From Spirochaetia bacterium UBA2205 (GTDB lineage: Bacteria; Spirochaetota; UBA4802; UB4802): DNA of 64,000 nucleotides. This document shows positions 7,512 through 45,319 of the stretch, one piece after another. The first letter of the stretch is position 1. Each line of letters starts with the position of its first letter. A program made the translations under genes and the position numbers. Below the pieces are notes generated by a model. That model saw only the letters and a list, made by a program, of their open reading frames with translations. It did not search any database and was not told where the DNA came from. The DNA is taken from assembly GCA_002328585.1 (NCBI GenBank), contig DCUV01000032.1:189569-253568 (forward strand), written 5' to 3'.

Positions 7512-8096
7512 TTATTTTTTCTTTATTAATGAAGCAAACTTTGATACAAATCCATTATGAATAGTAAAACCACTCAATTGCTGTTTAACATCTTCTATGG
7601 TGATGAATGCATTGGGTTCTAACATTTGAACAATTTCAACCACTCTTTTCACATCTCTTTTTGGTATAACAGTAAACAACATCGTTATAGGCCCTTTCAT
7701 GCCAACACCATCAATTTGACTTACTCCAAAACCCTCTTGCCTCAATACCAGAGGAAGTGCAGAAACAACCTTGCTGGTGATAACTCGGACTGATTGGTAC
7801 CCAATGGCTATTTTTTCCTCCAATAACATCCCAACATAATTCCCTGTGGCAAAACCTAATGCATAAACAATATAACTTATAATCCCATTAAAATGTTGAA
7901 GTGCAGAATTAATCGCAAAAAGCCAGATAAGAACCTCAAAAAATCCCAGGACCGGGGCTATAGATCGGTATCCTCTTGCCACCAAAATTATTCGCACTGT
8001 TCCAATTGACACATCAAATATTCTGGCAGTAAATATTAATACTAAGGTACCATACTGATGAACGAAAGAACTGAAGAAAGCAATGATTGCATCCAT
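7512..8096 (-). CDS. UPF0316/DUF2179 family membrane protein
   Basis: N-terminal TM helices followed by a soluble C-terminal domain (VIPKRDVKRVVEIVQMLEPNAFITIEDV) typical of YebE/DUF2179 proteins. Confidence 0.55.
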   Translation of the reverse strand: MDAIIAFFSSFVHQYGTLVLIFTARIFDVSIGTVRIILVARGYRSIAPVLGFFEVLIWLFAINSALQHFNGIISYIVYALGFATGNYVGMLLEEKIAIGYQSVRVITSKVVSALPLVLRQEGFGVSQIDGVGMKGPITMLFTVIPKRDVKRVVEIVQMLEPNAFITIEDVKQQLSGFTIHNGFVSKFASLIKKK

Positions 8097-8318
8097 AGCG
8101 AAATATTATTATCTCCTACCATGTCTGATATATCTCTTGAAAAATATATATATGTATCAATGTCAATATATATTTTACATACATATTACAGGCATGTTGA
8201 GTATAATATGATGCTACAGTGCGACAAAAAAATTATTGCAATTACCACTACATTATGGCATAAATGTATCAACATTAATCATTCAAACACCGTCAGGAGT
8301 AACAGTATACCATAAAAA

Positions 8319-8396
8319 TCTAAAGTCAAAAAGCCAGATGCCCGGTCAAGCCCGGAATGATATTGATGCAAAATTCTATTTTCAGAGGCGTGTTTT
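8319..8396 (+). promoter_or_regulatory. conserved ~78-nt leader element, copy A (tctaaagt...aagcccggaatga..ttgatg...tctatttt...gagg)
   Basis: Near-identical blocks are shared with 11785-11862. It ends in an RBS (agagg) 7 nt before the ATG at 8397. Confidence 0.6.
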
Positions 8397-8690
8397 ATGA
8401 AACCTTCATTTATTACATCCATTGTGTTGTTTATAGTAGTATACATGCTTATCCCAATACACATAACTGCACATAATCAAAACCATACAATGATTGGTCC
8501 ATATTTTTTTGTAAAGATAACTGATGACTCAAATGCCCAGGAAGAAAAATCAAAACCTGATGATAAAGAACAAAAATCATTAGACAATCCATCCGATGAT
8601 AACACCTTTAGTAATGACGAAGATGAAAATGATAATGATATGGAAGATATCCCTGATGATTTCTATGATTATCAGGAAGAGAACCTTTGA
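8397..8690 (+). CDS. secreted acidic protein (hypothetical)
   Basis: N-terminal signal-peptide-like hydrophobic stretch, then an extremely D/E-rich tail (SNDEDENDNDMEDIPDDFYDYQEE). Preceded by conserved leader element A and a plausible RBS. Confidence 0.5.
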   Translation: MKPSFITSIVLFIVVYMLIPIHITAHNQNHTMIGPYFFVKITDDSNAQEEKSKPDDKEQKSLDNPSDDNTFSNDEDENDNDMEDIPDDFYDYQEENL

Positions 8691-9133
8691 TGCCTTTTAA
8701 CAACAAGACAGGGCATCGTCGACTTTCTTACCACTTTTTCAGTGACAGATCCCAATAGCATCTCTTCAATATTGCTTTTGCCATGCGACCCCATTATTAT
8801 GCATGAAACCTTCTTTTGTTCAGCAATAGTAATAATCTCTTTAAACGGAATACCTTCAATAATGAGAGGAGTAACTTTGTATACCTTTGATAATTGTTTC
8901 TTTAAATTATTCATCTGTTTTTCAGCTTCTTTTTTCAGAATATCAGAAATATCATAGGGATAAACAAATGTTTCACCAAATGCTGTGGTATCAATTATTG
9001 TGCTATGACGGATGTCAACTACATGAAGAATAATAAGCTCCCTTGCCCCTGTTTTTTTCATTAACTTTATGTAAGGAATGGCTGCATTAGCACATTCTGA
9101 AAAATCTGTTGGATATAAGATTTTTGTAAACAT
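8672..9133 (-). CDS. universal stress protein UspA family
   Basis: ILYPTDFSE...A...A and the C-terminal GSHGKS...LGSVTEKV motif typical of UspA. Confidence 0.85.
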   Translation of the reverse strand: MFTKILYPTDFSECANAAIPYIKLMKKTGARELIILHVVDIRHSTIIDTTAFGETFVYPYDISDILKKEAEKQMNNLKKQLSKVYKVTPLIIEGIPFKEIITIAEQKKVSCIIMGSHGKSNIEEMLLGSVTEKVVRKSTMPCLVVKRHQRFSS

Positions 9134-9160
9134 TTTGTTGTCCTTCTAAGATTAATGTAT

Positions 9161-10171
9161 CTAATTCTTTATGATGCAACAACCAGTTTCATTAACAACT
9201 TTTTCTATCATCATAAAAAATTTATTACCATTTATCAACGCGTTATAACCTCCATCTACCAAAAGAAATTCATTTGTTCCACCTAATATGCTATAAGTAA
9301 ATGGTATTGCATAAAATGTATTATCATAATTATACACTACTATTCCATCGCCGTTGTTTATGATAATACCATCATTAAGCAAATGAACATCCTGCAGTTT
9401 TGTAAAGCTTTTCATTGTCTTGTCCTTTTTCGTTGTGATACTGATACTTTTTAAATCCCAATGTCCAGCACTACCCGTAATAACAAACAGCTTATCATCT
9501 TTTAGTATATTCTTCCATGAGGCAATCCGTATACGGGATAGCAAAATATCTCCTTCAGTGGACAATACCCATGCATTGTACATTCCGGCTATTCCCACAA
9601 TTATAATGAGCTTATTACTGACAGCATGCATATATCCATTGTAGTATTTCAATGTTTCCGGTGGTGGAAAATCTATAGATGACAATCTTCTTATTTTTTT
9701 ATCATCCTGACTATGTACATATAACTCTTCCCCGCAGAGCAAATAAACATCCTTATTACAATACGAAACTGCTTTAATGGGTTTGGTTGTTGGGTTATTG
9801 ATAATGATTTCCTCATCAGACGAAAACTTACATACCATAATGCCATCAGTTACAACACAAACATCATCGGTAGAATCATACCATACACTAACCACTTCAC
9901 GTGGGAATTCATATGCTTGTTTTTTGGGATACAGCATGGTGAGTAACGTTTCAGTAGAAAAAACTGCATATGGAGTACAAACAAAACTTTGCTCATCCAA
10001 CGTTTTTTCCATAGAATACTCTATCAACCCGTCTTTAATTTTTACAAAGGCACTTTGATATAATCCCTCCTGATACAGTTCAATTCCTTCATTTACCGTT
10101 TTTTGCCTTGAACATGATATAGTAATAAGTAAAAGAACAATACTGCAAGCTGAAAGATAACGAAGAATCAT
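9161..10171 (-). CDS. hypothetical lipoprotein
   Basis: N-terminal LLLITISCS lipobox-like signal. No recognisable catalytic motifs. Confidence 0.45.
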   Translation of the reverse strand: MILRYLSACSIVLLLITISCSRQKTVNEGIELYQEGLYQSAFVKIKDGLIEYSMEKTLDEQSFVCTPYAVFSTETLLTMLYPKKQAYEFPREVVSVWYDSTDDVCVVTDGIMVCKFSSDEEIIINNPTTKPIKAVSYCNKDVYLLCGEELYVHSQDDKKIRRLSSIDFPPPETLKYYNGYMHAVSNKLIIIVGIAGMYNAWVLSTEGDILLSRIRIASWKNILKDDKLFVITGSAGHWDLKSISITTKKDKTMKSFTKLQDVHLLNDGIIINNGDGIVVYNYDNTFYAIPFTYSILGGTNEFLLVDGGYNALINGNKFFMMIEKVVNETGCCIIKN

Positions 10172-10173
10172 GA

Positions 10174-11529
10174 CTAACCTTTTTTACCTTTAATTTTTTC
10201 CATTGTTTTTTGTAAAAATCGCCCGTCCATGATTTCAATCATTTTATTTGCTGCCTGAGATTTAGCATTAATACTAAATTTTGATGTTGTTATATAAATA
10301 CCACTTTTACACTTCTCTTCAAGCATACGCTGGTAAAAAGTATTAATCTGCCCTTCGGTTATATCACGGGTTGTTCGTATAAAATTAATTAAAACCGGCG
10401 GTTCATTTATCCTTTTAACGCTAAAACATTTATACATGTACTCATTGGCCGAAACTTCTTTTTTATATACTATACTATAATTTAGCTGAGCAATAATCTC
10501 AGTAATAAGCGGCTGTAACTCTGCCATAGTAGAAGTAAACAAGAATTTAAGATTTTTATTTTCAAGAATTGATTTGTAATCGTCAAGCTTTACCTGTGTG
10601 CTGCGATAATTAGGATTTATACTTGCAATCTTTTCCCAGTGATGTACTGCTTCTGGTATCTTATTTTCCATCTCATAACATTCCGCCAATAAATAACGAT
10701 ATGCCAATCCTTCGTCTGTATTATCCTTTATATATGGCAATCCTTTTTCCAGTTCTTCGATTGCTTTAGAATATGCATCATTATCAAAATATAACTGTCC
10801 TATAGCATACTGGCTTTTATCAAAATACCGTCTATCGTTGCGAGCCTTACCAAGCATCTCTAAAGCAGCAGTATAATCCTTTTTCATCTTAAAGATCATA
10901 CCAAGATAGTAATGGGCTTCATAATTTGTAGCATTTGTTTCAACAGCTTTAATCAGAAAATTTTCTGCTGTTCCATATTCACCTGTATTATACAGACATA
11001 TACCTAACGGTGCATAAAGATCAGAAAGAGCAGGGTCCAGTGTAACTGCTTTCAATAAATAATCTTTGGATCCGGTATAATCATGCTGGCGGTAAAGCAC
11101 AATCCCCAATCTGTAGTTGGCATTGATATCGTCGGGATTAAACTGTAAAATAATTCTGAACTCTTCAACCTCTTTTTGCCATTGTTGTGTTTCATGGTAT
11201 AGGTCAGCAAGATGATAATGGATATCCAGTTCCCCTACATATTTATCAAAATCAGGTATACTGAGTATTCCATTAAGTTCTGCAATAGCCAGTAAATATT
11301 GTTTTTGTTGAATCAATATCTGCGCCCTGAGATAACGCGCAGGGACATAATCCTTTTTTCGTTCAAGAACCAGCTTGACAATTTCACTTGCTTTTGCAAT
11401 GTCTCCATTATCAAGATATTCCTGAGCTTTTCGTACTTTTGCAGGATATTGATGTGCCCGTATAATTACCAGCAGCGCGCCAACAATTGATGCGCCAACA
11501 ATAAAAAATGTAATGCTTAATAATGACAT
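10174..11529 (-). CDS. TPR-repeat membrane-anchored protein with C-terminal Mrr_cat-like (restriction-endonuclease-fold) domain
   Basis: N-terminal TM helix, multiple TPR-like repeats (AxxxY/LG spacing), and a C-terminal ~140 aa resembling the Mrr N-terminal endonuclease-like fold (LITEIIAQLNY...IYITTSKFSINAKSQA...IEIMDG). Confidence 0.6.
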   Translation of the reverse strand: MSLLSITFFIVGASIVGALLVIIRAHQYPAKVRKAQEYLDNGDIAKASEIVKLVLERKKDYVPARYLRAQILIQQKQYLLAIAELNGILSIPDFDKYVGELDIHYHLADLYHETQQWQKEVEEFRIILQFNPDDINANYRLGIVLYRQHDYTGSKDYLLKAVTLDPALSDLYAPLGICLYNTGEYGTAENFLIKAVETNATNYEAHYYLGMIFKMKKDYTAALEMLGKARNDRRYFDKSQYAIGQLYFDNDAYSKAIEELEKGLPYIKDNTDEGLAYRYLLAECYEMENKIPEAVHHWEKIASINPNYRSTQVKLDDYKSILENKNLKFLFTSTMAELQPLITEIIAQLNYSIVYKKEVSANEYMYKCFSVKRINEPPVLINFIRTTRDITEGQINTFYQRMLEEKCKSGIYITTSKFSINAKSQAANKMIEIMDGRFLQKTMEKIKGKKG

Positions 11530-11763
11530 AGATTTTTCATATTTTACATTTGATTTTATTACTACATGAGTTATATTTTAAGTCAAGCATTATAGCTTTA
11601 AAAGCAAAAAATGATATGATAGCTTTTTAACTTATGAGGTTATGTGTATAATATAACACATTATATGCAAGTAAGTTTTTCATCACATTATGATGGTATA
11701 GATGCTGAAATGAGCCTACCATAGCAACAGCCCATAATTCAGCATACCAATTGAAAAAAGTAT

Positions 11764-11785
11764 CATCCTGAACTGATTTCAGGAT
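11764..11785. promoter_or_regulatory. perfect inverted repeat ATCCTGAA-ctgat-TTCAGGAT (candidate operator or terminator)
   Basis: 8-bp perfect palindrome arms with a 5-6 nt spacer, immediately upstream of the purE leader element. Confidence 0.4.
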
Positions 11786-11862
11786 CTAAAGTTACATACC
11801 TGGATTCAGGATAAAGCCCGGAATGACGTTGATGAATAAATCTATTTTAAATGGAGGAATAT
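11785..11862 (+). promoter_or_regulatory. conserved ~78-nt leader element, copy B (upstream of purE)
   Basis: Aligns with 8319-8396 over most positions (tctaaagt, aagcccggaatga, ttgatg, tctatttt, ggagg-ATG). Confidence 0.6.
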
Positions 11863-12393
11863 ATGCCAGAAATAGGGATTATTGTTGGCAGTGATTCGGA
11901 CCTTCCTAAATTAAAGGGATGTTTCCAGACATTAGATGATTTTAATGTTTCGTATGATGTAAAAGCGTATTCTGCTCACCGTACTCCTCACCTGGTTGCT
12001 GAATGGGTTGTTCAGTTTGAAAAGGATGGTGGCAAGGTTATCATTGCCGCGGCAGGCGGCGCTGCTCATCTGCCAGGGGTTGTTGCTTCTCATACTATAC
12101 TCCCGGTCATAGGTATTCCCGTTGAAACATCCATAGCTGGAGGGCTTGATTCATTGCTTTCTATTGTCCAGATGCCATCGGGCATACCGGTAGCAACGGT
12201 TGCTACAGGAAAAGCAGGTGCAACCAATGCAGCACTTTTGGCTATTGCAATCCTATCAACCTCCAATCCTGACTATAGTGCTAAATTAAAAAACTACCGC
12301 GACACAATACAAAAAACTATCGCCAGGAAAAATGAAACGTTAACTAAACAGGGTATTTACGAATATATAAAAGAGTTAGAGGCACAAAAATGA
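11863..12393 (+). CDS. purE: 5-(carboxyamino)imidazole ribonucleotide mutase PurE
   Basis: IGIIVGSDSDLP...AHRTP...IIAAAGGAAHLPGVVAS. The ggagga RBS 6 nt upstream favours the ATG at 11863 over the ORF-track start at 11851. Confidence 0.9.
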   Translation: MPEIGIIVGSDSDLPKLKGCFQTLDDFNVSYDVKAYSAHRTPHLVAEWVVQFEKDGGKVIIAAAGGAAHLPGVVASHTILPVIGIPVETSIAGGLDSLLSIVQMPSGIPVATVATGKAGATNAALLAIAILSTSNPDYSAKLKNYRDTIQKTIARKNETLTKQGIYEYIKELEAQK

Positions 12394-13958
12394 TAGAGCA
12401 TGGCATTGGAATATCCTCTCAAAATAAAGTGCTCATACTGGACTTTGGTTCGCAGTACACACAGCTCATTGCTCGTAAAATACGGGAATTGCATGTATAT
12501 GCAGAGATAGTTCCCTACACAATAACTATCGCCGAAATAACAAAAGAAAATCCCGGTGCCATTATACTTTCTGGAGGACCTTCCTCATTATACGAGGATA
12601 ACGCTCCGCACATCTCAGATGATCTATTTTCGCTGGGATTACCGGTGCTTGGTATTTGCTATGGGTTATATGCTGTGGTTAATGCATTTCATGGTATCAT
12701 CAATCCTTCCCCATTCAAGGAATATGGCAGGGCAACCATAAAGTTAGTTGAAGAATCTCCATTGTTTAAGGATCTTCCCCGCACACAAACGGTATGGATG
12801 AGTCACGGCGATACCGTTGAACGTATTCCGGAGACATTTAAAACAATAGCACGTTCTGAAAATGCGCCATACGCTGCTATAGAAAACAGGGAAAAGAAAA
12901 TTTACGGCGTACAATTTCACCCCGAAGTGTATCATACCCAGTACGGAAAGGAAATTTTATGCAATTTTTTATTTACTATCTGCAATTTCCAGCCTACATG
13001 GACCATGCAATCTTTCATTGATGCTGCGATTAATGATATACGCAATGTAGTAAAAGATGGCACTGTTTTACTGGGGCTGTCCGGCGGTGTTGATTCTTCA
13101 GTTACTGCAGTGTTGCTACAACGAGCAATTGGTAATCATCTGTACTGTGTGTTTGTTAACAATGGATTATTGCGCAAGGATGAGCATAGAAAGGTTATAG
13201 AACGTTTCAAAAAACATCTAAAACTCAATCTCATCTATGCTGATGCTGAAGAACATTTTTTACATAAACTTAAAGGCGTTATTGACCCGGAAGAAAAGCG
13301 TAAAATAATTGGTAAAGAATTTATTACTATTTTTAAACAAGAAGCTGCTAAAATTGGCACGTTTGACTTTTTAGCCCAGGGTACACTCTATCCCGATGTC
13401 ATTGAATCAGTTTCCACAAAGGGCCCATCTGATACAATAAAGAGCCACCACAACAGGGTGCCTGAAGTGCTGGAGCTTATCAATGAAGGCAAAGTGATTG
13501 AACCATTAAAAGAGCTATTTAAGGATGAGGTTCGCGAGTTAGGAAGGCAATTAGGAATGCCCGAAGAATTAATAAACAGGCATCCATTCCCTGGCCCAGG
13601 GCTTGCCATCCGCATCATTGGTGAGGTCACCAGAGAACGTCTTGCCATAGTGCGTGAAGCTGATGACATACTCATAGAAGAGATTAAGAATGCTCATTTC
13701 TATAACAAATTGTGGCAGGCTTTTGCGGTATTTTTACCCGTTAAATCGGTAGGCGTCATGGGTGATAAACGTACCTACGATAATGTCATAGCACTACGCG
13801 TTGTTACTTCGCTTGATGCAATGACTGCCGACTGGGCATATCTGCCTGAAGATTTAATGCGCCGAATCTCTACACGCATTATTAATGAAGTAAAAGGCGT
13901 GAACAGAGTTGTATATGACATTTCATCAAAACCACCATCAACCATTGAATGGGAATAA
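12390..13958 (+). CDS. guaA: GMP synthase (glutamine-hydrolysing)
   Basis: GATase region (LGICYG, GVQFHPEV) and PP-loop SGGVDSSV. 522 aa, ATGA-coupled to purE. Confidence 0.95.
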   Translation: MIEHGIGISSQNKVLILDFGSQYTQLIARKIRELHVYAEIVPYTITIAEITKENPGAIILSGGPSSLYEDNAPHISDDLFSLGLPVLGICYGLYAVVNAFHGIINPSPFKEYGRATIKLVEESPLFKDLPRTQTVWMSHGDTVERIPETFKTIARSENAPYAAIENREKKIYGVQFHPEVYHTQYGKEILCNFLFTICNFQPTWTMQSFIDAAINDIRNVVKDGTVLLGLSGGVDSSVTAVLLQRAIGNHLYCVFVNNGLLRKDEHRKVIERFKKHLKLNLIYADAEEHFLHKLKGVIDPEEKRKIIGKEFITIFKQEAAKIGTFDFLAQGTLYPDVIESVSTKGPSDTIKSHHNRVPEVLELINEGKVIEPLKELFKDEVRELGRQLGMPEELINRHPFPGPGLAIRIIGEVTRERLAIVREADDILIEEIKNAHFYNKLWQAFAVFLPVKSVGVMGDKRTYDNVIALRVVTSLDAMTADWAYLPEDLMRRISTRIINEVKGVNRVVYDISSKPPSTIEWE

Positions 13959-14443: not shown

Positions 14444-14911
14444 TCACCGCATGCGCTTATAGCGCTGCAGCTCTCTGTCCGAATCACGCTTTTTTATATC
14501 ATGACGTTTGTCATAGAGGGTTTTCCCTTTCGCAAGTCCAAGCAGCACCTTAACCTTACCATTTTTCCAGTATACCTTTAACGGTACCAGGGTAAGCCCC
14601 TTTTCCTGTTGTTTGCCGGTAAGACGTTTTATCTCCTGTTTATGTAACAAAAGCTTACGTACCCGCAACGGGTCATGATTAAAGATATTTCCACTCTCAT
14701 ACGGTGAAATATTCATCCCATAGAGAAAAGCTTCGCCATCTTTAATGCGTGCATACGCATCCTGAATGTTTACCTTTTTTAAGCGCACCGATTTTACCTC
14801 AGTGCCCTTCAATACTATACCTGCTTCTATAGTATCAAGTATTTCATACTCAAAGCGTGCCTTTTTATTCTGTACTATTTCCGTTTCAGATGACATGATT
14901 ATTCCCTTCAT
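14444..14911 (-). CDS. smpB: SsrA-binding protein SmpB
   Basis: KKARFEYEI.DT.EAGIVL.GTEVKS and the basic C-terminal tail. Confidence 0.9.
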   Translation of the reverse strand: MKGIIMSSETEIVQNKKARFEYEILDTIEAGIVLKGTEVKSVRLKKVNIQDAYARIKDGEAFLYGMNISPYESGNIFNHDPLRVRKLLLHKQEIKRLTGKQQEKGLTLVPLKVYWKNGKVKVLLGLAKGKTLYDKRHDIKKRDSDRELQRYKRMR

Positions 14912-14920: not shown

Positions 14921-17077
14921 TTAACTGCGTCTGGCAAGCGGCAATGCAACACCGGCAACTATTAGCACCGTACCTAACCAGACAAGCCAGATAAGTCGTT
15001 TAAACGATATATCAACAATAACCGAATCAGGAGGAAGAACTGCATTGTCATGAGCATCAATATGTAAAACAACTATCGCATCCCTTACATCAAAATCAAG
15101 CAGCACAACAGTGCGGTTTGTGCCGGGAATCATAGCTTTTATATCCTGTCGCATATCATTGTTATAGGCTACGCCGGGTTTAACCGTATACTGTGTTCCC
15201 TTATAGGTAATGGTACATTGTGCATAGACAATTGCATTCCCTTTCATCATGGCTACCCTATCAACATCAAAGCTATCAAAACGTATGGTGATATCACCAA
15301 GCGTATTTATCTCACCTTTTTTGAGCATCACCTGAGTCAGCTTATCATACCCGCTCATATATTCAACAGGTGAAATATACGCATCATAGAGTATATTGTA
15401 ATCAATAGAGGGCTCCCTGAATAACTGGTTTGTTCTGGTATCAATAAAATAGGGTGTGGTAATGGTTTTGTCTTTGTTGTAGTAACTATAATGAAAAACC
15501 AGAGCGTTTTTAGTGCCGCCTGTCATCCCGACAAGCTCAAGTGTGATAGGATAAATGGTTTTTTTCTCTTTCTGGATTAATTCAGTATGATAATCCAGCG
15601 ACTGCGTTTGTGATGTGATTATACCAATAACAAGCAGCGCCACACCACTGTGGGCTACCCTTGCAGCTACATTCAAATGGGTATACGGGAACAAGCCTTT
15701 TATATTGGTAACAATAATAAAAAAGCTTACAAACATTAGTATTAATGGGAATATGTGGATTGTTTGCCCAATATATAAAAGGATTGTTAAACCTGAGGCG
15801 ATAGTTATCGGTATAACAAAAGTCCTGATTTTCAACGGTAATTTTTTTGTGAAAGTAGCAAGCAGTAATAATACTACGATAACAAAGCCAACTGGTTTTA
15901 CAATGCTTATGTAATACGATTCTCTAACGGTCGATGGTTGCGATAGTAATCTGGTAAGCAGCGGCATACAGGTGCCAATAGTAACAAACAATGCAAAAAA
16001 TAACATTGCAGCAATACCGTATACCATTATATTTTCTTTTGAAAGTACATTATTCTCAAGAACTTTGCCACATGCATCCCTGTAGCGATAGATAATCAAG
16101 CCAATGCTTAGCACAACTATCGTGCTCAAAAACAACAAAAGATCGGTAAAATTGCCAGCCCCGCTGAATGAATGAACCGAAAAATCTGAAAGCACACCAC
16201 TTCGTGTTAAAAATGTGCCAAAAAGGACAAAAACATATACCCCTATTGCCATGGCAATATTAGCCCGCACCAGAACCTGTTTCCGTTTCTGCAGTATTAA
16301 TCCATGCAATAGTGCAATACTGATAAGCCATGGGATAAGAGATGCATTCTCAACGGGGTCCCAACCCCAGTAACCACCCCATCCCAATACCTTGTATGCC
16401 CAGTAGCCTCCTAAAAAAATCCCGGCGCCCAGGGCCAACACGGTTGCAAGCACATAACGGTAAGCAGTAAGTATAATGGAATAGTTATTATATAGTAACG
16501 ATAATATTGCATAAATAAATGCTATGGTAGATAATGCATAGCCAATAAAAAGAACCGGCGGATGAATGATCATCCAGAAATCCTGTAATAATGGATTAAG
16601 CCCTGCACCATCTGTGGGAATTATATTTACAGGAAAATTTTTTGATGTATCCCATATATAGGCAAATGGATTATTATTAATACAATGAATCATAAAGATA
16701 AGCGACACTAAACCCAATATTGTTAAAAAGCTTTGTTTCAATTGTTCTTCCCTGTTAACAGCAATAATCCCGGCAATCATTATAAAAAATGTCCATAAGG
16801 CGATGGAACCTTCCTGACCTGCCCATACAGCGGCAATACGGTATAGTACTGGCAAATCTACTGATGAATAATGATATACATAGGAATATTGAAATTTACA
16901 GGTAACAAATGCCATTAACAAACATATAAGCATTAATGCTACAATTCCTGTTGCTGCATAATACAGATATTTTGCTAAAGTAAATATTTTTGGTTTACTC
17001 AATGAATATACAGCTATCATTGTCGATAGCATAATCAATAGTGCTGGAATCCATGGCAGATAATATAAACTATTCAT
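14921..17077 (-). CDS. ccmF: cytochrome c-type biogenesis protein CcmF (heme lyase)
   Basis: WGGYWGWDPVENASL WWD motif, about 15 TM helices, 718 aa. Confidence 0.85.
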   Translation of the reverse strand: MNSLYYLPWIPALLIMLSTMIAVYSLSKPKIFTLAKYLYYAATGIVALMLICLLMAFVTCKFQYSYVYHYSSVDLPVLYRIAAVWAGQEGSIALWTFFIMIAGIIAVNREEQLKQSFLTILGLVSLIFMIHCINNNPFAYIWDTSKNFPVNIIPTDGAGLNPLLQDFWMIIHPPVLFIGYALSTIAFIYAILSLLYNNYSIILTAYRYVLATVLALGAGIFLGGYWAYKVLGWGGYWGWDPVENASLIPWLISIALLHGLILQKRKQVLVRANIAMAIGVYVFVLFGTFLTRSGVLSDFSVHSFSGAGNFTDLLLFLSTIVVLSIGLIIYRYRDACGKVLENNVLSKENIMVYGIAAMLFFALFVTIGTCMPLLTRLLSQPSTVRESYYISIVKPVGFVIVVLLLLATFTKKLPLKIRTFVIPITIASGLTILLYIGQTIHIFPLILMFVSFFIIVTNIKGLFPYTHLNVAARVAHSGVALLVIGIITSQTQSLDYHTELIQKEKKTIYPITLELVGMTGGTKNALVFHYSYYNKDKTITTPYFIDTRTNQLFREPSIDYNILYDAYISPVEYMSGYDKLTQVMLKKGEINTLGDITIRFDSFDVDRVAMMKGNAIVYAQCTITYKGTQYTVKPGVAYNNDMRQDIKAMIPGTNRTVVLLDFDVRDAIVVLHIDAHDNAVLPPDSVIVDISFKRLIWLVWLGTVLIVAGVALPLARRS

Positions 17078-17449
17078 TTATTTTTGCTCCCGGGTATACT
17101 TTGATGGGCATTTAACCAATATTTTATCTGCTTCAAACATCTGTTTTTTGTTATTATAGATGCCGATTGCAACAACGCTGGTAGCATGTTCAAAGTTCAA
17201 CGGTTTGGCACCCCTGTATAGTACCGTCATCCGTTCCAATGCATTATCTTCTATCACAAATATAAAACCATCTGTGGTATTCTGCACAGGCACTGTTTTA
17301 ACCAGCCTGCCAATTATCTGAACATAATCGGGATTATTCTTTGCATCATCAAAGGGAACATACGGTGTTAAAAGCCCCTTAAACGAAAAGAGTGCTACAG
17401 CAGAACATATAACAATGATTGCCACAATAATGATCTTACTTTTTGCCAT
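17078..17449 (-). CDS. ccmE: cytochrome c-type biogenesis heme chaperone CcmE, CxxxY variant
   Basis: N-terminal TM anchor and an OB-fold-like body. The C-terminal LVKCPSKY occupies the position of the canonical LAKHDENY heme-binding HxxxY. Confidence 0.75.
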   Translation of the reverse strand: MAKSKIIIVAIIVICSAVALFSFKGLLTPYVPFDDAKNNPDYVQIIGRLVKTVPVQNTTDGFIFVIEDNALERMTVLYRGAKPLNFEHATSVVAIGIYNNKKQMFEADKILVKCPSKYTREQK

Positions 17450-17609
17450 TGACCCTCTTTTCCAGCTGTTTTATTTTACGGTGTAAAACAACAAGATAGC
17501 ACACTATTCCACACCATACAACCGCAGATACCCAGAAAAGCGTTTTTGAATAATTTGAATCTGTCTGCGCCAAAAACTGCATTGCGGTAACTATCGCATA
17601 TAATTTCAT
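17436..17609 (-). CDS. ccmD: heme exporter protein CcmD (small membrane protein)
   Basis: 57-aa ORF missing from the ORF track (<60 aa). Its ATG lies 1 nt after the ccmC stop and it overlaps the ccmE start by 14 nt. Single TM helix plus a basic tail (HRKIKQLEKRVNGKK). Confidence 0.55.
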   Translation of the reverse strand: MKLYAIVTAMQFLAQTDSNYSKTLFWVSAVVWCGIVCYLVVLHRKIKQLEKRVNGKK

Positions 17610-17610
17610 A

Positions 17611-18258
17611 CTATTCCTCGTGCAATTTTGATTTCAGTACATAAATCCGCACCCACAATCCAAGCAATATATAGTACAAAAGAGTAAATGATACCAACGA
17701 TATAGCAAGCACCAATCGCATTTCTGTATCCAGCATCAATTGTCCCTGAGCATTAATGACAGGCTCAGGATGCAGTGTTGGGTAAAGCCGTGGTGCTACA
17801 AAGATTAAAAATGGTGATGCAACAAACGCAATGATGAGATACACACTTTCTAACATAGGGGCTTTTGGATTACCGCTAACAATCTGTTGCAGGCTGAAAT
17901 AGGCAATATACAATAAAAGCAATAGTGTGATGGAGGTTTCACGCGGGTCCCAGTTCCAGTAACTGCCCCACATAACCTTTGCCCACAACGAGCCAGTAAT
18001 TACGGTAAGGATGCTAAAAAAAAGACCTATGTGTGCAGAACTTCGTGCATACACTATATAGTTTATTTTTGACTTTTTCAAAAACGATAGCGAAGCAATA
18101 CCTGCTACTGCAAAAGCCAAACACGATACCCACGCAAGAGGCACATGGAGGTATACTATACGGCTTGTTTCCCCTAATATAGCCGCTGGAGGCACCCATA
18201 TATAGATTAAATACAATGACAGCATCATGACAATGCCATTTAATAGTATTACAATCAT
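17611..18258 (-). CDS. ccmC: heme exporter protein CcmC
   Basis: WGSYWNWDPRE WWD motif, about 6 TM helices. Confidence 0.85.
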   Translation of the reverse strand: MIVILLNGIVMMLSLYLIYIWVPPAAILGETSRIVYLHVPLAWVSCLAFAVAGIASLSFLKKSKINYIVYARSSAHIGLFFSILTVITGSLWAKVMWGSYWNWDPRETSITLLLLLYIAYFSLQQIVSGNPKAPMLESVYLIIAFVASPFLIFVAPRLYPTLHPEPVINAQGQLMLDTEMRLVLAISLVSFTLLYYILLGLWVRIYVLKSKLHEE

Positions 18259-18275
18259 AGCTATTCTCGTTACTA

Positions 18276-18938
18276 TTAAAATTCGCGCCAGATATAAGGA
18301 AATAATAAATACGATACCATTCCCAGAACCATTGAAAACGCAAGTAGAAAAATTATAGCGCTTAATGGAGAAAAAACCTGCTGTTCAAAGCACCTGGCTG
18401 TAGATTGTATTGCAACAGTAAAAAGCGGTAATACCACCGGGAAAGCCAATATGGTAAACAACCCTCCCCGTGCACCGGCTAATGCTGCAATAGCTCCTAT
18501 AACCGTTGTTGCAAAAGCAAGCGATAAACTTCCAGCAATGAGTATTGCTATAAGATAGATACCGTGATAGACAGAAACTGAGATAACAAAGACATAGATA
18601 ATGATGACCATAATGGCAATAACAACCATTACACAACAATTAATCAAAAGTTTTGAAAGATAGATAACAACAGCCGGATAATGTATTACACCAAACAGTG
18701 CAGTCGACTCTTCTATTTCTCTGAAAAAAACATGCGATAGCGTATTCATCCCGGAAAAAAAAATGATTATCCATAGTATAGCAGCATGGAGTAAAGGACT
18801 ATTGATGATACCACCTGTTGCAAATCCAATGGAAATAGTAACAATGACACTGAATGATAAGACAATTGAAACGATAATACGACTTCTGAATTCAATCAAT
18901 ATATCCTTCTGGATGTTCCGCCATAATGCCTTAATCAA
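18276..18938 (-). CDS. ccmB: heme exporter permease CcmB
   Basis: 220-aa polytopic membrane protein between ccmA and ccmC. The conserved FSRE-like region (FFREIEEST) fits CcmB. Confidence 0.75.
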   Translation of the reverse strand: MIKALWRNIQKDILIEFRSRIIVSIVLSFSVIVTISIGFATGGIINSPLLHAAILWIIIFFSGMNTLSHVFFREIEESTALFGVIHYPAVVIYLSKLLINCCVMVVIAIMVIIIYVFVISVSVYHGIYLIAILIAGSLSLAFATTVIGAIAALAGARGGLFTILAFPVVLPLFTVAIQSTARCFEQQVFSPLSAIIFLLAFSMVLGMVSYLLFPYIWREF

Positions 18939-19527
18939 GCACTATACTCCTTTTACAAAAGTTCAACTCATGAGCATCATTTGTTGCAATGAAAATAGCC
19001 GTTGTTGGCTGTACTTTCTCCAGTAAAGAAAAAAGCACCCTTTTACCCTGCTCATCCAGATTGCTGCCGGGTTCATCTAAACAAAGTACACTGGCTTTTT
19101 TTAAAAATGCAAGTGCTAACTTAACACGCTGAATCATACCTGTGGAATAAAACATAAGCATGGTATTGCTATGGGGCGATAGTCCCAGTACATCTAAAAG
19201 CTGCACTGCATCATCATCAACAGTCCCAATTGCAAACGTAATATTTTCAAGTGCAGTCAGATATTTATACACATTAATATACGGTGCAGCAAAACCAATA
19301 TAGTTTCTGATATATGCAGTATCAACAGGTTTATCATTATACCAGTATGCAACGTTTCCACTATCAGGTGTCATAACTCCTGCTATAATCTTAAGCAAGG
19401 TTGACTTGCCACTTCCATTAGGACCTGCAATGGCAAGGGACTGCCCTGTAGCAACACTAAATGACATATCCCTGAATAACATTCTGGTATACCGTTTTGA
19501 AAGATTACTGGCTTTAACCGTTACCAC
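18931..19527 (-). CDS. ccmA: heme exporter ATP-binding protein CcmA
   Basis: Walker A GPNGSGKST, an ABC signature-like STGMIQR and Walker B LCLDEP. Confidence 0.85.
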   Translation of the reverse strand: MVTVKASNLSKRYTRMLFRDMSFSVATGQSLAIAGPNGSGKSTLLKIIAGVMTPDSGNVAYWYNDKPVDTAYIRNYIGFAAPYINVYKYLTALENITFAIGTVDDDAVQLLDVLGLSPHSNTMLMFYSTGMIQRVKLALAFLKKASVLCLDEPGSNLDEQGKRVLFSLLEKVQPTTAIFIATNDAHELNFCKRSIVLD

Positions 19528-19533
19528 AACACC

Positions 19534-20925
19534 TTACAATATAATATCTTTTTTTGCAGTTGCCATCTCAATAATATCAAGTTTGACAGCTTTTTCCTTC
19601 ATTACGGTATCAACTGCTTTTTGATCAGCAATTCTGTACAGCAACCGCACCTTGATAGTATAGCTACCTTTTAAGCCTTTTGGTAAAATAATGGTGCTGG
19701 TAATTTTTTGTTTGGGTGGAATCCTGTTGTCAGAGAGTACCTCCTTAGCTTTTGCAATGTTCATAACTGGCTTGCCGTTACCATCACCAAAAACAGTTTT
19801 AAAAATTATTGTATTATTGGGCAAATAACCCTTTTTATCAGCCTTCCCTACTGCATACACCTCTCTTCCATACTGATTGACAACTACTATCTCAAGCCAC
19901 ATCTGCCGCACATCAGTAAGCCCTGTTGGAAGTTTATGACCGGCACCAACATTGGTTACAGCAATACCAACCGTACCACTGTTACTGTCACCGGTTTCAA
20001 TTTCCAGCAGTGCTGCATTTTTCAACCGTTCCTGTGCCATCTTGGCTTTCACAGTATCCTTAAATAATCCAGGGATAACACTATTTCCGCCAACAAAATA
20101 ATGAGTAAAGATATGATCACGTTGTGGACCGCCAAACGCTGCAAAACCGGGATTAGCAGGGCGAGGCGTCGAGCCGGTTGCAGGCACCCCTGGTCGGTGA
20201 TACATGTGACAACCCTGACAGGGCACCGTTGTTTTGGAGTCACCGGTGTTATAGGGGCTTTTTGACCATTCCTCAAAGGTTGTCTCCAATTTTGTTCCAT
20301 AAACCACATGACGTACATCATGGCATGTCCCGCAAAAATCAGCTTTTGTATGGAATGATGAATATGCTGCTGTATGCCAATCGGGATTAGCATCCTTAAA
20401 AGGTCCACGCTTTACTCCAGGATCCGCCTCACCATTACCTGGTTTATACACAAATCGTGCGTTGTAATGTTTCTTTGCTTCAACAATAGTATGACAGTAA
20501 TCGCACTGTATACCTTCCATGGTTATTTGTGGCAGGTCCTTTTCCATGGATAATTCTTCAGTTACCGATAATGGCTTACCAGTAATATATCCCACAGGGA
20601 TGTGGCATTTTACACAGCTTTCTGCCTCTTTTAGTTCATCATTATTGACAGGATTTTGACTTTTGCTATCATCCAGATAAAACCGTGCAAACTCTTTATA
20701 GATGATATCCTTTTGAGCTACATTATGCATGGAATTTTTCCACTGTTCATATATCTCATCATGACAACCACCACATGTGGAAGGATTGATAAACTGTGCT
20801 AATGTATAATGAGGCGTTGATTTGCAGCCAAGAAAAAGTGCATACCCAACACATAAAACAAAACTAACGGTAATTATTATTTTTGATTTCATACTGTATC
20901 CCTTACTCCTGTTTATTCTCATCAT
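19534..20925 (-). CDS. pentaheme c-type cytochrome lipoprotein
   Basis: Lipobox LFLGC. Five CxxCH motifs (CGGCH, CVKCH, CDYCH, CGTCH, CQGCH). No CxxCK. About 220-aa non-heme C-terminal region. Confidence 0.85.
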   Translation of the reverse strand: MMRINRSKGYSMKSKIIITVSFVLCVGYALFLGCKSTPHYTLAQFINPSTCGGCHDEIYEQWKNSMHNVAQKDIIYKEFARFYLDDSKSQNPVNNDELKEAESCVKCHIPVGYITGKPLSVTEELSMEKDLPQITMEGIQCDYCHTIVEAKKHYNARFVYKPGNGEADPGVKRGPFKDANPDWHTAAYSSFHTKADFCGTCHDVRHVVYGTKLETTFEEWSKSPYNTGDSKTTVPCQGCHMYHRPGVPATGSTPRPANPGFAAFGGPQRDHIFTHYFVGGNSVIPGLFKDTVKAKMAQERLKNAALLEIETGDSNSGTVGIAVTNVGAGHKLPTGLTDVRQMWLEIVVVNQYGREVYAVGKADKKGYLPNNTIIFKTVFGDGNGKPVMNIAKAKEVLSDNRIPPKQKITSTIILPKGLKGSYTIKVRLLYRIADQKAVDTVMKEKAVKLDIIEMATAKKDIIL

Positions 20926-21261
20926 TGCACTATACAGTAATTACTATCTTCAACTAATCATATTTAAAATTATACAATTACTACTTTTACTACCTTACTC
21001 ACAAAGATAAACTATTCATTTCAACTACAATGCTATAGCAACACTACTTCCTGTTCATTTCAGTATCTATAAACAAAAATGTCAATTACGTTATTGTTAA
21101 AATTATACGATTTGTTTTCAAGAAAATTTTACTTGCTAATATGAAATGGATAGCTATCATATTACAATAAATAGTGAATTACTCTGAATGTAACCAAAAT
21201 ATGTTTTACTATACATATTAATACATTTATTACAACAATTATAACATTACTGGAGGGAGTT

Positions 21262-39113: not shown

Positions 39114-40316
39114 CTACAATAACACATCAATTAACATGTCCAGATGATCCATAAGTTCTCTTGTAATGAGGAAGTTCTTCCTTACATGTTCTTTTCCATT
39201 TTTCCCCATACTGATTCTAAGCTCTTCATTTTTCAGAATCTCAATTACTTTTTTGGCACATCCATCAATATCATAAGGATCAATAAGGAATCCGTTTTCA
39301 CCATCTATGATCTGTAATGGTATGCCACCAACATCAGAAGCCACTACCGGCGTTCCCTTCCATAAAGCTTCTGAAACAGTTAAGGCAAATCCTTCTCTCA
39401 ACGACTTTTGTAATACCACTGCTGCTTTGGTTTGTAAAATATTGACAAGAACATTGTTTTCCAAGGTAAATAAAATAACATCCTTCAAACCTTTTACTTT
39501 TTGCTGAATTTTATTATAAATGTGCATGCCCTCAGGGTCATCACTTGCCATTGAACCACATAAAATGAGATAACAGTCAACCTCTTGTTTAACCTTTTCA
39601 AAAACTTTTAATACACCTTCAGGATCCTTCCATTTATCAAAACGTGATATTTGTACAATAAATGGTTTATCAGTAGGGATTCCAAATTTATTTATATATT
39701 TATCCTCAACAGCTTGCGAAAGACGAATATTTTTTACAGAAAGAGGATCTATAGAAGGATGGATGATGCGCTGAGGTATCGGGACATCATTTTTTTTATA
39801 TTTCTCATGAGAAACGATCATCAAATCATAATGGAGAATAAACGTTTTCAAATAATCCCATAATTGGACGTTTTGATTAGTAATATCTATATGGCATCGC
39901 CATATCCATGGTTGTCTTTTTCTATAAAATTTAATCATAGATAATGGCTGCGGATCATGAACAATAACGCAATCATGATTTATATGAGTAAAACGTGCAA
40001 AATTTTTATTTGTTTCCTCATATAACTGGCATTTCATTTTTGTAAAGTGTATATAGTCACCCTGCAATGCATTATGAAATTTTTTTGTTACCGAAAAAAA
40101 ATCAGGCGCTCCATGCAGTATTCTCCACCCTGTAAATACACCAGCATCATTCATCAATATTACAAGATTATTTAATATCTCAGCTACACCACCACCCTGA
40201 TATGTTGAATTAATATTCACAATATGTTTTTTTGAGAGTTTAGTCGCTTTACTGTATAGATTGCTTAAAACAGAATCATCTATAATACCCTTATAATCAT
40301 CAAGACTCTTATGCAT
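39114..40316 (-). CDS. treT: trehalose glycosyltransferring synthase TreT-like (GT4)
   Basis: NSTYQGGGVAEIL, FFSVTKKFHNALQG, HDPQP...WIWRCHID, HPSIDPLS, SRFDKWKDP, DDPEG, REGFALTVSEALWKGTPVV..VGGIPLQIIDGENGFL. These match conserved TreT blocks. Confidence 0.75.
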   Translation of the reverse strand: MHKSLDDYKGIIDDSVLSNLYSKATKLSKKHIVNINSTYQGGGVAEILNNLVILMNDAGVFTGWRILHGAPDFFSVTKKFHNALQGDYIHFTKMKCQLYEETNKNFARFTHINHDCVIVHDPQPLSMIKFYRKRQPWIWRCHIDITNQNVQLWDYLKTFILHYDLMIVSHEKYKKNDVPIPQRIIHPSIDPLSVKNIRLSQAVEDKYINKFGIPTDKPFIVQISRFDKWKDPEGVLKVFEKVKQEVDCYLILCGSMASDDPEGMHIYNKIQQKVKGLKDVILFTLENNVLVNILQTKAAVVLQKSLREGFALTVSEALWKGTPVVASDVGGIPLQIIDGENGFLIDPYDIDGCAKKVIEILKNEELRISMGKNGKEHVRKNFLITRELMDHLDMLIDVLL

Positions 40317-40317
40317 A

Positions 40318-43629: not shown

Positions 43630-44037
43630 AGCAATATCCTCACATTATCATGTAATCAAAGGTAATAGTTATTGTATGAAATGAGAAGAACTTATTGCAA
43701 AAAAATTATGTAAGTAGATATGTTCATCTGTGAATTATACACATATTATAATTATTATAATACTTTATTAAATACTCATGACTTTGCCCTATTATAAATC
43801 ATATTGAATATCTATGATAAATTTATACTTTGTCAAACTTTTTTCATATTTTAAGTAACTATCGCACCCCGCTATTGCTTTATATGTTTTGTAATCTTTG
43901 AATCATGGTCATGGAACGTATTCAACCATTGATTGCAACTTCTTATGTTTTATTGCAAAAAATATTGTACTTGATTTCTATGTCAAGACTCGTAATTAAA
44001 TCCTATACTATAGCTATTATAATTTACAAAACTTTCA

Positions 44038-44971: not shown

Positions 44972-45319
44972 ATTGCATTAATGTTAACTACATCCCTTTC
45001 TATTTCTATAATGATAACTGTGCAAATTGGGGTATTATATTGCTCACTATGCGATGCATTGTCACCCGTTTCATTATGGCAAATACTTATTGCCAATGTT
45101 GCCGTATAATTTTAAAATTATTTTACCACTGAAATCGTACTATAAATAAAATTAACTGCACCATACCATATACACACGCTTGCAATTTACCAATTTATCA
45201 TTGTAATTAACGAAATAGTCATAACCGGATCATAAATCACATATCCCAGTTTTTTACTTGACTTTCCATAATTATTAATTATAGTAAAACCAAATTTATA
45301 ATAATTACAGGAGGATGCT

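Follow-up and report, generated by a model that had tools for sequence, protein, structure and literature searches.

In Desulfovibrio, the ccm genes of System I cytochrome c maturation follow the order ccmEFABCD. The variant System I of D. desulfuricans (Allen et al. 2006; Goddard et al. 2010 J Biol Chem 285:22882, as cited in PMC9084895) combines a CxxxY (CPSKY-like) CcmE with CcmD, has no CcmH or CcmG and, as Goddard 2010 is cited there, is sufficient without CcmH. Methanosarcina acetivorans CcmABCEF1F2 also uses a CxxxY CcmE without CcmH or CcmI; it has no CcmD, its CcmF is split into two genes, and its genes are dispersed over several loci (PMC9084895). CcmABCEF is functional in this organism, the essential CxxxY Cys is required for haem binding by CcmE, and CcmG and CcdA are dispensable (PMC9084895). 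In contrast, Escherichia coli CcmABCDEFGH carries His130 in CcmE (HDENY) and needs both CcmH and CcmG. Among pentahaem cytochromes, the low-potential c552 of the purple sulfur bacterium Thermochromatium tepidum (PDB 5ze8; Chen et al. 2019) has no known ccm linkage or stress-gene association. MccSep/ExtKL (GSU2936; bioRxiv 10.1101/2025.11.18.688581) and the cable-bacteria PHCs (PMC11976967) are periplasmic proteins with a five-haem helical cap and an Ig-like stem, whose G-H-x-x-P-x-G loop reaches the haem domain. In cable bacteria, PHC relatives carrying a fused truncated haemoglobin have been proposed to reduce O2 in the periplasm (PMC11976967; bioRxiv 10.64898/2026.01.20.700514).

Here, we describe a spirochaete operon from a 64 kb stretch of DNA, referred to as the window, that places both kinds of protein side by side. 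It shares CcmD, the CxxxY CcmE, and the absence of linked CcmH and CcmG with D. desulfuricans, and differs in its host (Spirochaetota), its ABCDEF order, its CcmD of the CcmD_alt type (TIGR04391), and its leading gene, which encodes the operon's own cytochrome substrate. In contrast to M. acetivorans, the spirochaete has a CcmD, an undivided CcmF of 718 residues, and all of these genes in one operon. CcmA-F are homologous to their E. coli counterparts, with WWD motifs and His ligands retained in CcmC and CcmF, whereas CcmE carries Cys114 (CPSKY) and neither CcmH nor CcmG is linked.

Organization and conservation of the operon

A preliminary description of the locus had read the gene order as pentahaem cytochrome, ccmA, ccmB, ccmC, ccmD, ccmE, and ccmF at 14921-20925, and the ORF map and Pfam/NCBIfam matches confirm this order on the minus strand, with smpB next after ccmF (Table 1). 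Intergenic spacing from the cytochrome through smpB ranges from -14 to +17 nt; ccmA starts 6 nt past the cytochrome stop, and ccmB and ccmA overlap by 8 nt. SmpB is encoded by a housekeeping gene located 9 nt downstream of ccmF, where ccmG/ccmH would be; it is probably co-transcribed with the operon and lies outside the Ccm system. The GC content of the operon (0.38) equals that of its surroundings.

Table 1 Features of the cytochrome-ccm operon and its surroundings in the window.
Feature	Position	Strand	Evidence or remarks
Pentahaem c-type cytochrome, PHC / c552-like family	19534-20925	-	463 aa as called
ccmA, ATPase of haem-handling ABC complex	18931-19527	-	PF00005 ABC_tran; best NCBIfam TIGR01189
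ccmB, ABC permease	18276-18938	-	PF03379, 48.4 bits (cut-off 24.9)
ccmC, WWD-domain haem-handling protein	17611-18258	-	PF01578, TIGR01191
ccmD, 57 aa, CcmD_alt family	17436-17609	-	TIGR04391, 29.8 bits
ccmE, membrane-anchored haem chaperone, Cys type, 123 aa	17078-17449	-	PF03100, 51 bits
ccmF, haem lyase/synthetase, 718 aa	14921-17077	-	PF01578 + PF16327; TIGR00353, 252 bits
smpB	14444-14911	-	PF01668, 211.7 bits; NF003843, 217 bits
Candidate operon promoter	21057-21085	-	TTGACA (21085-21080), 17 nt spacer, TGAAAT; conservation

The cyt-ccmABC(D)EF-smpB order with a KCPSKY CcmE recurs in 9 of 80 GTDB loci, each from a Leptospirales/Spirochaetota MAG, and is also present in L001/L002. The ccmF-smpB junction is kept in the nine related loci, and synteny extends over the nine species at 51-80% cytochrome identity. 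This recurrence indicates that the gene order is maintained by selection and does not result from misassembly.

The 57-residue ccmD had been called by hand, and the call is upheld by its TIGR04391 score, above the cut-off of 24, while PF20077 gives 19.8 bits, under its cut-off of 23.5. The predicted protein consists of a single transmembrane helix and a basic tail. It was seen by tblastn in six of the nine syntenic relatives (L011-L014, L017, L027); L002 has a called gene of 57 aa, and L004-L006 each have a CcmD_alt gene of 86 aa. CcmA scores 106.5 bits against TIGR01189, under the equivalog cut-off of 131.6. Because they fall below the NCBIfam equivalog (ccmA) and Pfam (ccmD) cut-offs, both are divergent members of their families.

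Upstream of the operon, the sole well-conserved block in a comparison of the window with L012, L013, L014, and L027 is AAC(A/G)T(A/T)(A/G)TTGACATTTT(T/G)G. A generic promoter scan of the upstream region returned 29 matches against 30.3 expected, i.e. not above chance, so it is conservation that points to the TTGACA-17-TGAAAT block, ~190 nt ahead of the likely start of the cytochrome gene, as a candidate operon promoter.

A Cys-type CcmE in a locus without ccmG and ccmH

CcmE ends in LVKCPSKYTREQK, which contains LVKCPSKY; the CPSKY codons were verified at 17096-17110 on the minus strand. In a profile alignment of 19 homologues against E. coli CcmE (1sr3, 8ce8_E), LVKCPSKYq lies over LAKHDENYT, placing C114 on H130 and Y118 on Y134, as expected from the earlier proposal that a Cys replaces the haem-binding His. 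LVKCPSKY is invariant in all 19 homologues, and the invariant columns of this alignment contain no His that could take over the role elsewhere in the protein. The closest PDB relative is 2kct, the Cys-type CcmE of Desulfovibrio vulgaris. The motif is also invariant in 12 related ccm loci, and the Cys type is carried by 150 of the 150 best CcmE cluster representatives (50%-identity clusters); it is common, not rare, in metagenomic sequence space. The association of CxxxY CcmE in archaea and Desulfovibrio with CcmH-less systems, also put forward at the outset, agrees with the literature (PMC9084895).

The haem-handling residues of the other components are retained. CcmC keeps YLHVP (His60), WGSYWNWDPRETS (WWD), and TLHP (His184) relative to E. 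coli CcmC (7f02_C). Compared with Thermus thermophilus CcmF (6zmq_A), CcmF keeps the WWD motif (GWGGYWGWDPVENAS) and four of four His residues (IHPPV, LLHG, SVHSF, VAHSG), two of them transmembrane (haem b) and two periplasmic.

No ccmG or ccmH follows ccmF, as the preliminary description had stated, and the same is true of the nine syntenic relatives and three more distant ccm loci. The ~60 ORFs of the 64 kb window gave no Pfam match to CcmG (Thioredoxin/Redoxin type), CcmH, or DsbD/CcdA, and no WCxxC motif occurs in window ORFs of at least 80 aa. Thioredoxin-like or LRCxxC genes were found in 0 of the 12 related ccm loci, 10 kb flanks included. With its CcmE Cys, CcmABC(D), the CcmC and CcmF motifs, and no ccmH/ccmG in or beside the cluster, the operon is, judged from its genes, a CcmH/CcmG-less, Cys-CcmE System I variant like those of D. 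desulfuricans and archaea, and CcmF apparently works without CcmH. A canonical System I of the E. coli type was rejected on the Cys at the CcmE His position and the absence of CcmH (LRCxxC) and CcmG (WCxxC) from the window. Taking together the 64 kb of this genome and the flanks of up to 10 kb read in relatives, ccmG and ccmH may be missing genome-wide; an unlinked CcdA or TlpA-like reductase is quite possible, and an unlinked CcmH is unlikely.

Family and neighbourhoods of the pentahaem cytochrome

A motif scan found exactly five CxxCH sites and no CxxCK in the leading cytochrome, matching the initial count. Only one more CxxCH occurs among the stop-to-stop window ORFs of at least 80 aa, so the five sites are not a chance occurrence. 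The true start is probably Met12 (20892), which follows AGGAG and yields the lipoprotein signal MKSKIIITVSFVLCVGYALFLG, ending in LFLG directly before the Cys.

NrfA is defined by a Lys-ligated catalytic haem (CxxCK; CxxCH in some clades), an NrfA-family HMM, and the NrfA fold. The initial decision not to call the cytochrome NrfA was sound: no NrfA-family Pfam or NCBIfam model matches, and fold searches give T. tepidum c552, not NrfA. That the protein resembles NrfA in length and number of haems is a coincidence. The best NCBIfam match is NF040886 ExtKL at 66.9 bits, far under the cut-off of 250, and the cytochrome profile also matches the MccSep structures 9wt8 and 9wt9. An N-terminal helical five-haem cap is followed by a C-terminal Ig-like β-sandwich with a long hairpin and a conserved GH-x-x-PTG loop, the counterpart of the MccSep/PHC stem loop. 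The protein is a member of the PHC fold family, which includes T. tepidum c552 (18-23% identity), ExtKL/MccSep, GSU2801, and the cable-bacteria PHCs. Its own family comprises more than 1400 clusters and is highly conserved and uncharacterised.

The catalytic Sec325 of MccSep (D-G-U-P loop; Sec/Cys) corresponds to Leu336, a position occupied by L, V, or I (PTG-L/V/I) in 35 of 35 aligned family members. The only invariant Cys residues of the family are the ten in CxxCH, so the Cys ligand of haem 2, C239, is absent. Without Sec/Cys325 and Cys239, MccSep chemistry is impossible for this protein, and an identity as MccSep/ExtKL selenoprotein polysulfide reductase was rejected. The family has seven extra invariant His residues, enough for bis-His ligation of all five haems; all-bis-His ligation would favour pure electron transfer.

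We examined the 80 loci for a stress set composed of PerR/Fur, rubrerythrin, desulfoferrodoxin, flavodiiron protein, rubredoxin, NADH:rubredoxin oxidoreductase, Tpx, CydAB, Ogg, and ferritin. At least one of these genes lies within 5 kb of the cytochrome in 29/80 loci and at least two distinct ones in 21/80, counts taken over loci that share ancestry; ~60% of the 80 loci have none within 5 kb, and none lies that close in the window or in any of the nine ccm-linked loci. A PerR-box search of the window was not above chance. The stress-linked loci come from two phyla and differ in arrangement, with the clade recurring in PerR, rubrerythrin, superoxide reductase, flavodiiron, and cytochrome bd clusters of Spirochaetota and Desulfobacterales. 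Two natural Fe/Mn-SOD::cytochrome fusions, P0102 and P0139, both carry a lipoprotein signal. Orthologues are in some cases SOD-fused, in place of the truncated-haemoglobin domain of cable-bacteria PHCs, which the spirochaete cytochrome lacks.

Proposed maturation route and alternative explanations

On the observed gene content, motifs, fold, and synteny, this is very probably a self-contained operon that pairs one substrate, a lipid-anchored periplasmic pentahaem cytochrome, with its maturation machine, a shortened System I CcmABCDEF. As in characterised systems, CcmC (WWD and two His) would hand haem to CcmE, where Cys114 would hold it covalently instead of the canonical His. CcmAB and CcmD would free holo-CcmE in an ATP-driven step, and CcmF, with its haem-b His pair, WWD motif, and two periplasmic His, would act as the lone synthetase, placing haem onto the five CxxCH sites without CcmH. 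No linked gene supplies a dedicated thiol-reduction arm of the CcmG/CcmH kind; the Cys residues of the apocytochrome are presumed to remain reduced in the periplasm of an anaerobe or to be reduced by an unlinked protein.

The operon could instead belong to an ordinary System I whose ccmG or resA, ccdA, and possibly ccmH are encoded elsewhere, making the difference one of gene placement and not of mechanism. The visible part of the genome is 64 kb, many organisms distribute their ccm genes over several loci, and M. acetivorans has both ccmG and ccdA at a separate locus, though they are dispensable (PMC9084895). However, Cys-type CcmE goes with CcmH absence in all characterised cases, and E. coli H130C CcmE binds haem and fails to transfer it to CcmFH (PMC9084895), so that canonical CcmFH would not be expected to function with a Cys-CcmE. 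Together with the 12 related loci, which are equally devoid of such genes, this makes dispersed genes an unlikely explanation. Far less plausible still is a decaying or recently acquired foreign remnant with a non-functional Ccm in a lineage otherwise without c-type cytochromes. Many cultured spirochaetes have no c-type cytochromes, and the window encodes a single CxxCH-rich protein. Against this stand ORFs that are all intact, catalytic residues that are all kept, a GC content matching the surroundings, synteny across nine species, and a 720-aa CcmF type that is widespread in Spirochaetota MAGs, which argues for long residence.

The cytochrome could also be a respiratory reductase, for nitrite (NrfA/ONR) or for polysulfide or selenite (MccSep/ExtKL), and the operon a respiratory module. 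Five haems in ~450 aa resemble NrfA, ExtKL and MccSep are among the profile matches, and a role in sulfur metabolism was suggested for T. tepidum c552 (PMC11976967). The motif, HMM, and fold results and the Leu336 substitution speak against either identity. The gene adjoins neither a quinol dehydrogenase (NrfH/NrfBCD) nor another respiratory partner, and in other genomes it sits next to stress genes rather than respiratory ones. We regard this explanation as improbable. In its most likely role, the cytochrome would reduce O2 or reactive oxygen species in the periplasm or pass electrons to them, rather than take part in nitrite or polysulfide respiration.

The operon itself is a genuine but ordinary case of a known Ccm variant, and its Ccm part adds little beyond extending the Desulfovibrio/archaeal variant to uncultured Leptospirales-like spirochaetes. 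As a naturally minimal package of a substrate and six maturation genes, it is convenient for studying CcmF without CcmH and the incompatibility of Cys-CcmE with CcmFH. The cytochrome is the more useful lead, since its neighbourhoods and SOD fusions point, through guilt by association, to oxidative-stress chemistry in the periplasm of strict anaerobes. We tentatively suggest that the PHC clade (~450 aa, no Sec/Cys) may be an unrecognised component of periplasmic O2/ROS defence in anaerobes, as a haem-based peroxide/oxygen reductase or an electron conduit to one, and that one Leptospirales-like lineage may have turned its whole minimal Ccm into an accessory of this single cytochrome. No paper linking the clade to O2/ROS defence was found in the literature searched, and the hypothesis is directly testable in cultured Desulfobacterales. 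If it is true, the ccm-linked lineage would retain the machinery for making c-type cytochromes largely or solely for its PHC cytochrome.

Organization of the ccm operon and its surroundings

The pentahaem cytochrome gene leads seven minus-strand genes, cytochrome-ccmA-ccmB-ccmC-ccmD-ccmE-ccmF, followed by smpB. ORF calling, Pfam, and NCBIfam bear out this order, which had been read in the preliminary description, and the two profile libraries uphold every operon gene assignment. Intergenic distances range from −14 to +17 nt, a tight spacing as expected for one transcription unit, and the operon GC content (0.38) is that of its surroundings. The hand-called 57-residue ccmD also stands: it scores 29.8 bits against TIGR04391 (cut-off 24), its Pfam match falls slightly short of that library's cut-off, and tblastn recovers it in six of the nine syntenic relatives. 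A sigma-70 promoter scan of the operon returned 29 sites versus 30.3 expected, not above chance. Terminator-like sites number 15 in the operon versus 4.8 in shuffles; nearly all lie within coding sequence, and none of those scanned across the operon marks its end. An Rfam scan of the operon and the whole window gave no match, and a tRNA scan found no tRNA.

Features of the window
Feature	Positions	Strand	Description
cytochrome	19534-20925	minus	463 aa ORF
ccmA	18931-19527	minus	Pfam/NCBIfam
ccmB	18276-18938	minus	Pfam/NCBIfam
ccmC	17611-18258	minus	Pfam/NCBIfam
ccmD	17436-17609	minus	57 aa; TIGR04391 CcmD_alt
ccmE	17078-17449	minus	Pfam/NCBIfam; CPSKY encoded at 17096-17110
ccmF	14921-17077	minus	718 aa; Pfam/NCBIfam
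smpB	14444-14911		9 nt downstream of ccmF
TPR protein	10174-11529		C-terminal Mrr_cat domain
trehalose genes	39114-42531	minus	fused OtsA-OtsB, 737 aa; TreT-type synthase, 400 aa
MscS channel gene	42571-43629		after trehalose genes
palindrome	43746-43760		15 nt, perfect palindrome; PerR box consensus
PerR-box copy	45296-45310		two mismatches
PrxU	45321-46033	plus	in-frame TGA at 45563-45565
LRCxxC ORF	48827-49651		274 aa
large ORFs	48151-53455; 61843-63951	minus	227, 518, 413, 327, 702 aa

Several features lie elsewhere in the window. PrxU, a selenocysteine peroxiredoxin, has its in-frame TGA at the peroxidatic Cys position and scores 385.6 bits against NF040737 (NCBIfam PrxU, cut-off 270) with U replaced by C; plain ORF calling recovers only its C-terminal 139 residues. 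A SECIS-like hairpin (9 bp stem, GGUC loop) begins ~13 nt past the UGA; its fold z-score is only −1.7. The palindrome TTATAATTATTATAA is identical to the Bacillus-type PerR box consensus. It is flanked by the MscS gene and by an unannotated ORF of 168 aa, with the genes for YjbQ and PrxU downstream; the imperfect copy lies just before PrxU. The fused OtsA-OtsB gene stands beside the TreT-type trehalose synthase gene, and together with MscS these look like an osmotic-stress module. In the relatives' loci L001 and L002, MscS immediately precedes the cytochrome, which points to a rearrangement of the region. The large ORFs have no Pfam match at E ≤ 1e-4; the neighbouring 274-residue ORF has only a weak QueC-like match.

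A Cys-type CcmE in a System I with no linked ccmG or ccmH

CcmE ends in ...FEADKILVKCPSKYTREQK, in which L111-V-K-C-P-S-K-Y118 is invariant across an alignment of 19 homologues reaching down to 34% identity; no conserved His occurs anywhere in this alignment. When its profile is compared with PDB sequences, LVKCPSKYq falls over LAKHDENYT of E. coli CcmE (1sr3, 8ce8_E), so that Cys114 takes the position of the haem-binding His130 and Tyr118 that of Tyr134. The Cys-type Desulfovibrio vulgaris CcmE (2kct, E = 1.9e-7) matches best. Alignment to the HxxxY and CxxxY families thus bears out the earlier reading of a Cys in place of the haem-binding His. When 1.84 billion cluster representatives were scanned in full with HMMER, 2709 CcmE-like clusters emerged, and the best 150 of these all have Cys at the haem position (135 with CPSKY, the remainder CP[STD][KR]Y-like). 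Cys-type CcmE is not rare. The partner proteins retain their functional residues: CcmC conserves His60, the WWD motif (WGSYWNWDPRETS), and His184 relative to E. coli CcmC (7f02), and CcmF conserves the WWD motif and all four functional His relative to Thermus CcmF (6zmq). Judged by these residues, the Ccm system appears fully functional.

That smpB, rather than ccmG or ccmH, follows ccmF held up in a wider search. Among ~60 window ORFs annotated with Pfam, none encodes a CcmG-type thioredoxin, CcmH, CcmI, or CcdA/DsbD, and WCxxC is absent from all window ORFs of at least 80 residues. The TPR protein was considered as a CcmI/CycH analogue and rejected: its TPR_CcmH_CycH match is generic and sub-threshold (33.2 vs 42), and it is probably cytoplasmic because an N-terminal anchor is followed by basic residues and the C-terminus carries an Mrr-like nuclease domain. 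The 274-residue ORF, considered as CcmH for its LRCxxC motif, was rejected on its length and its weak QueC-like match. Twelve related ccm loci, with flanks of up to 10 kb, likewise contain no credible thioredoxin-like or LRCxxC gene; the small LRCxxC/WCxxC ORFs found there overlap real genes out of frame or encode Cys-rich cytoplasmic peptides.

The pairing of a Cys-type CcmE with a lack of CcmH and CcmG is what Allen et al. 2006 put forward as a variant System I, and Goddard et al. 2010 showed that it works for D. desulfuricans (both as cited in PMC9084895). In M. acetivorans, CcmABCEF suffice, the Cys of CxxxY is essential, and neither CcmG nor CcdA is required under reducing conditions (PMC9084895). 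The E. coli CcmE H130C variant binds haem that cannot be passed to CcmFH (PMC9084895), which argues that a Cys-CcmE system makes no use of a canonical CcmH. The operon belongs to this already known variant, as the preliminary description had proposed from archaea and Desulfovibrio; its observation is confirmed and its interpretation supported. Like the Desulfovibrio type, the operon has CcmD and a single CcmF; what sets it apart is its gene order, its host phylum, and the placement of its own substrate at the head.

Conservation of the operon and the cytochrome family

The named homologues come from Spirochaetota MAGs. A cytochrome-profile scan of one genome per GTDB species gave 80 loci, the nearest at 78-80% identity and labelled uncultured Leptospira, Leptospiraceae, or Spirochaetota. 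The order cyt-ccmABC(D)EF-smpB recurs in nine of them (L011-L017, L027, L032), all with KCPSKY. In L001, the AsmA, guaA, and purE genes that flank the operon in the window are present as well. In a more distantly related Spirochaetota group, whose CcmE is 46% identical, ccmABCDEF occurs with no accompanying cytochrome. CcmF of the 720-aa type is found widely in MAGs of Spirochaetota. The system is therefore an old resident of the lineage, not an artefact or a recent import. In NCBI annotation, P0148 and many other 720-residue System I CcmF proteins of Spirochaetota are called 'cytochrome c biogenesis protein CcsA'. That name belongs to System II, and automated surveys may as a result assign the wrong maturation system to such genomes. 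In one more distant syntenic relative (L032), a 376 aa gene (11379-12509) lies between the cytochrome and ccmA; by eye only, the sequence of this inserted gene resembles a formylglycine-generating-enzyme/SUMF1-like domain. The cytochrome in L032 is immediately preceded by a Cys-rich ORF of 60 aa and a regulator of the ArsR type.

The true start of the window cytochrome is likely Met12 (20892), which is preceded by AGGAG and yields a predicted spirochaete-type lipoprotein signal, MKSKIIITVSFVLCVGYALFLG followed by C. The protein has five CxxCH sites and no CxxCK, and just one other CxxCH occurs among window ORF segments of at least 80 residues (64 kb). An NrfA/ONR identity was rejected on the missing CxxCK, the lack of an NrfA-family Pfam match, and fold searches that did not return NrfA, in agreement with the earlier decision not to call NrfA. 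The sequence profile reaches the Thermochromatium tepidum pentahaem cytochrome c552 (5ze8, 4e-13) and MccSep/ExtKL (9wt8/9wt9, 2e-6), proteins that a study of cable bacteria united in a 'PHC family' (PMC11976967). MccSep is a newly solved multihaem selenoprotein and polysulfide reductase, whose active site places haem 2, ligated by Cys239, beside Sec325 in a D-G-U-P loop of the Ig-like domain (bioRxiv 10.1101/2025.11.18.688581). In the family of the window cytochrome, the homologous loop reads G-A-G-H-x-L-P-T-G-(L/V/I), with Sec325 on Leu336, and the only invariant Cys are ten, all within CxxCH motifs. Equivalents of Sec/Cys325 and Cys239 are missing, so the cytochrome is a PHC-fold protein and not MccSep; its own haem 2 site is C104/C107/H108. 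The family is large (1482 matches), uniform in length (~450 aa), and strongly conserved (mean column identity 60%), and seven His are invariant in addition to the five proximal ones. Cultured carriers include Desulforapulum autotrophicum HRM2 and species of Desulfobacula and Desulfotignum. This family is uncharacterised and is the part worth following up.

In non-ccm contexts, a small c-type cytochrome often directly follows the pentahaem cytochrome, as with a 77-residue protein with one CSSCH in L007 (11357-11590) or a c3/c7-type multihaem protein of ~110 residues in L009 (11359-11697), L036, L054, L082, L088, and L090. From this position, the small protein may be a redox partner.

Oxidative-stress neighbourhoods and a proposed mechanism

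All genes lying within 5 kb of the cytochrome across the 80 loci were clustered, and recurrent clusters annotated. The stress set comprised PerR/Fur, rubrerythrin(-like) proteins, desulfoferrodoxin, flavodiiron protein, rubredoxin, rubredoxin reductase, thiol peroxidase (Tpx), cytochrome bd oxidase, 8-oxoguanine glycosylase (Ogg), and ferritin. At least one such gene is present in 29 of 80 loci and at least two distinct ones in 21; these loci come from Spirochaetota as well as Desulfobacterales and show several different arrangements. MntP is a further frequent neighbour. Loci with the cytochrome orthologue within or next to such a cluster, MntP included, are L019, L026, L031, L033-L037, L047, L052, L055, L059, L063-L065, L068, L072-L074, L078, L081, L082, L084, L085, L089, and L090. 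In L007 and L026, a co-directional run contains two Fur/PerR genes, rubrerythrin, a small MarR-like gene, desulfoferrodoxin, rubrerythrin, ferritin, flavodiiron protein, rubredoxin, the cytochrome, the 77 aa CxxCH protein, and NADH:rubredoxin oxidoreductase. If a genome has a handful of these clusters, chance adjacency would amount to a few per cent, by a rough estimate and not a computed one. In two metagenomic proteins, P0102 and P0139, a lipoprotein signal and an entire Fe/Mn superoxide dismutase (res. 38-229) are naturally fused to a full-length orthologue of the window cytochrome; in locus L091, a universal stress protein gene follows the fusion gene (8001-9998). Cable-bacteria PHCs fused to truncated haemoglobin were independently proposed as periplasmic O2 reductases (PMC11976967; bioRxiv 10.64898/2026.01.20.700514).

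Together, the neighbours, the fusions, and the cable-bacteria PHCs suggest a periplasmic O2/ROS-related role, a tentative lead, from neighbours outside the ccm-linked clade, that we consider on balance doubtful; a role in oxidative-stress defence is speculative. Caution is warranted because the ccm-linked loci and most of the 80 loci are without oxidative-stress neighbours. A search of the window for the PerR box (TTATAATNATTATAA) was also not significant (36 matches vs 25.6 expected; 6 of 100 shuffles reach 36), with only a two-mismatch site upstream of the cytochrome. No paper in the literature searched links this family to oxidative-stress gene clusters or to such a role.

The gene set, motifs, fold, and conservation are the observed part of the mechanism, and the steps themselves are established for homologues. 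Here, CcmC would present haem to CcmE, where it would become covalently attached to Cys114, and holo-CcmE would be released by CcmAB with CcmD. CcmF alone would then ligate haem to the five CxxCH motifs of the exported, lipid-anchored apocytochrome. A dedicated thiol-reduction arm would not be needed in an anaerobic host; the window has no aerobic respiratory genes and does encode the selenocysteine peroxiredoxin. More speculatively, the Ccm system in this lineage may exist chiefly for a single cytochrome.
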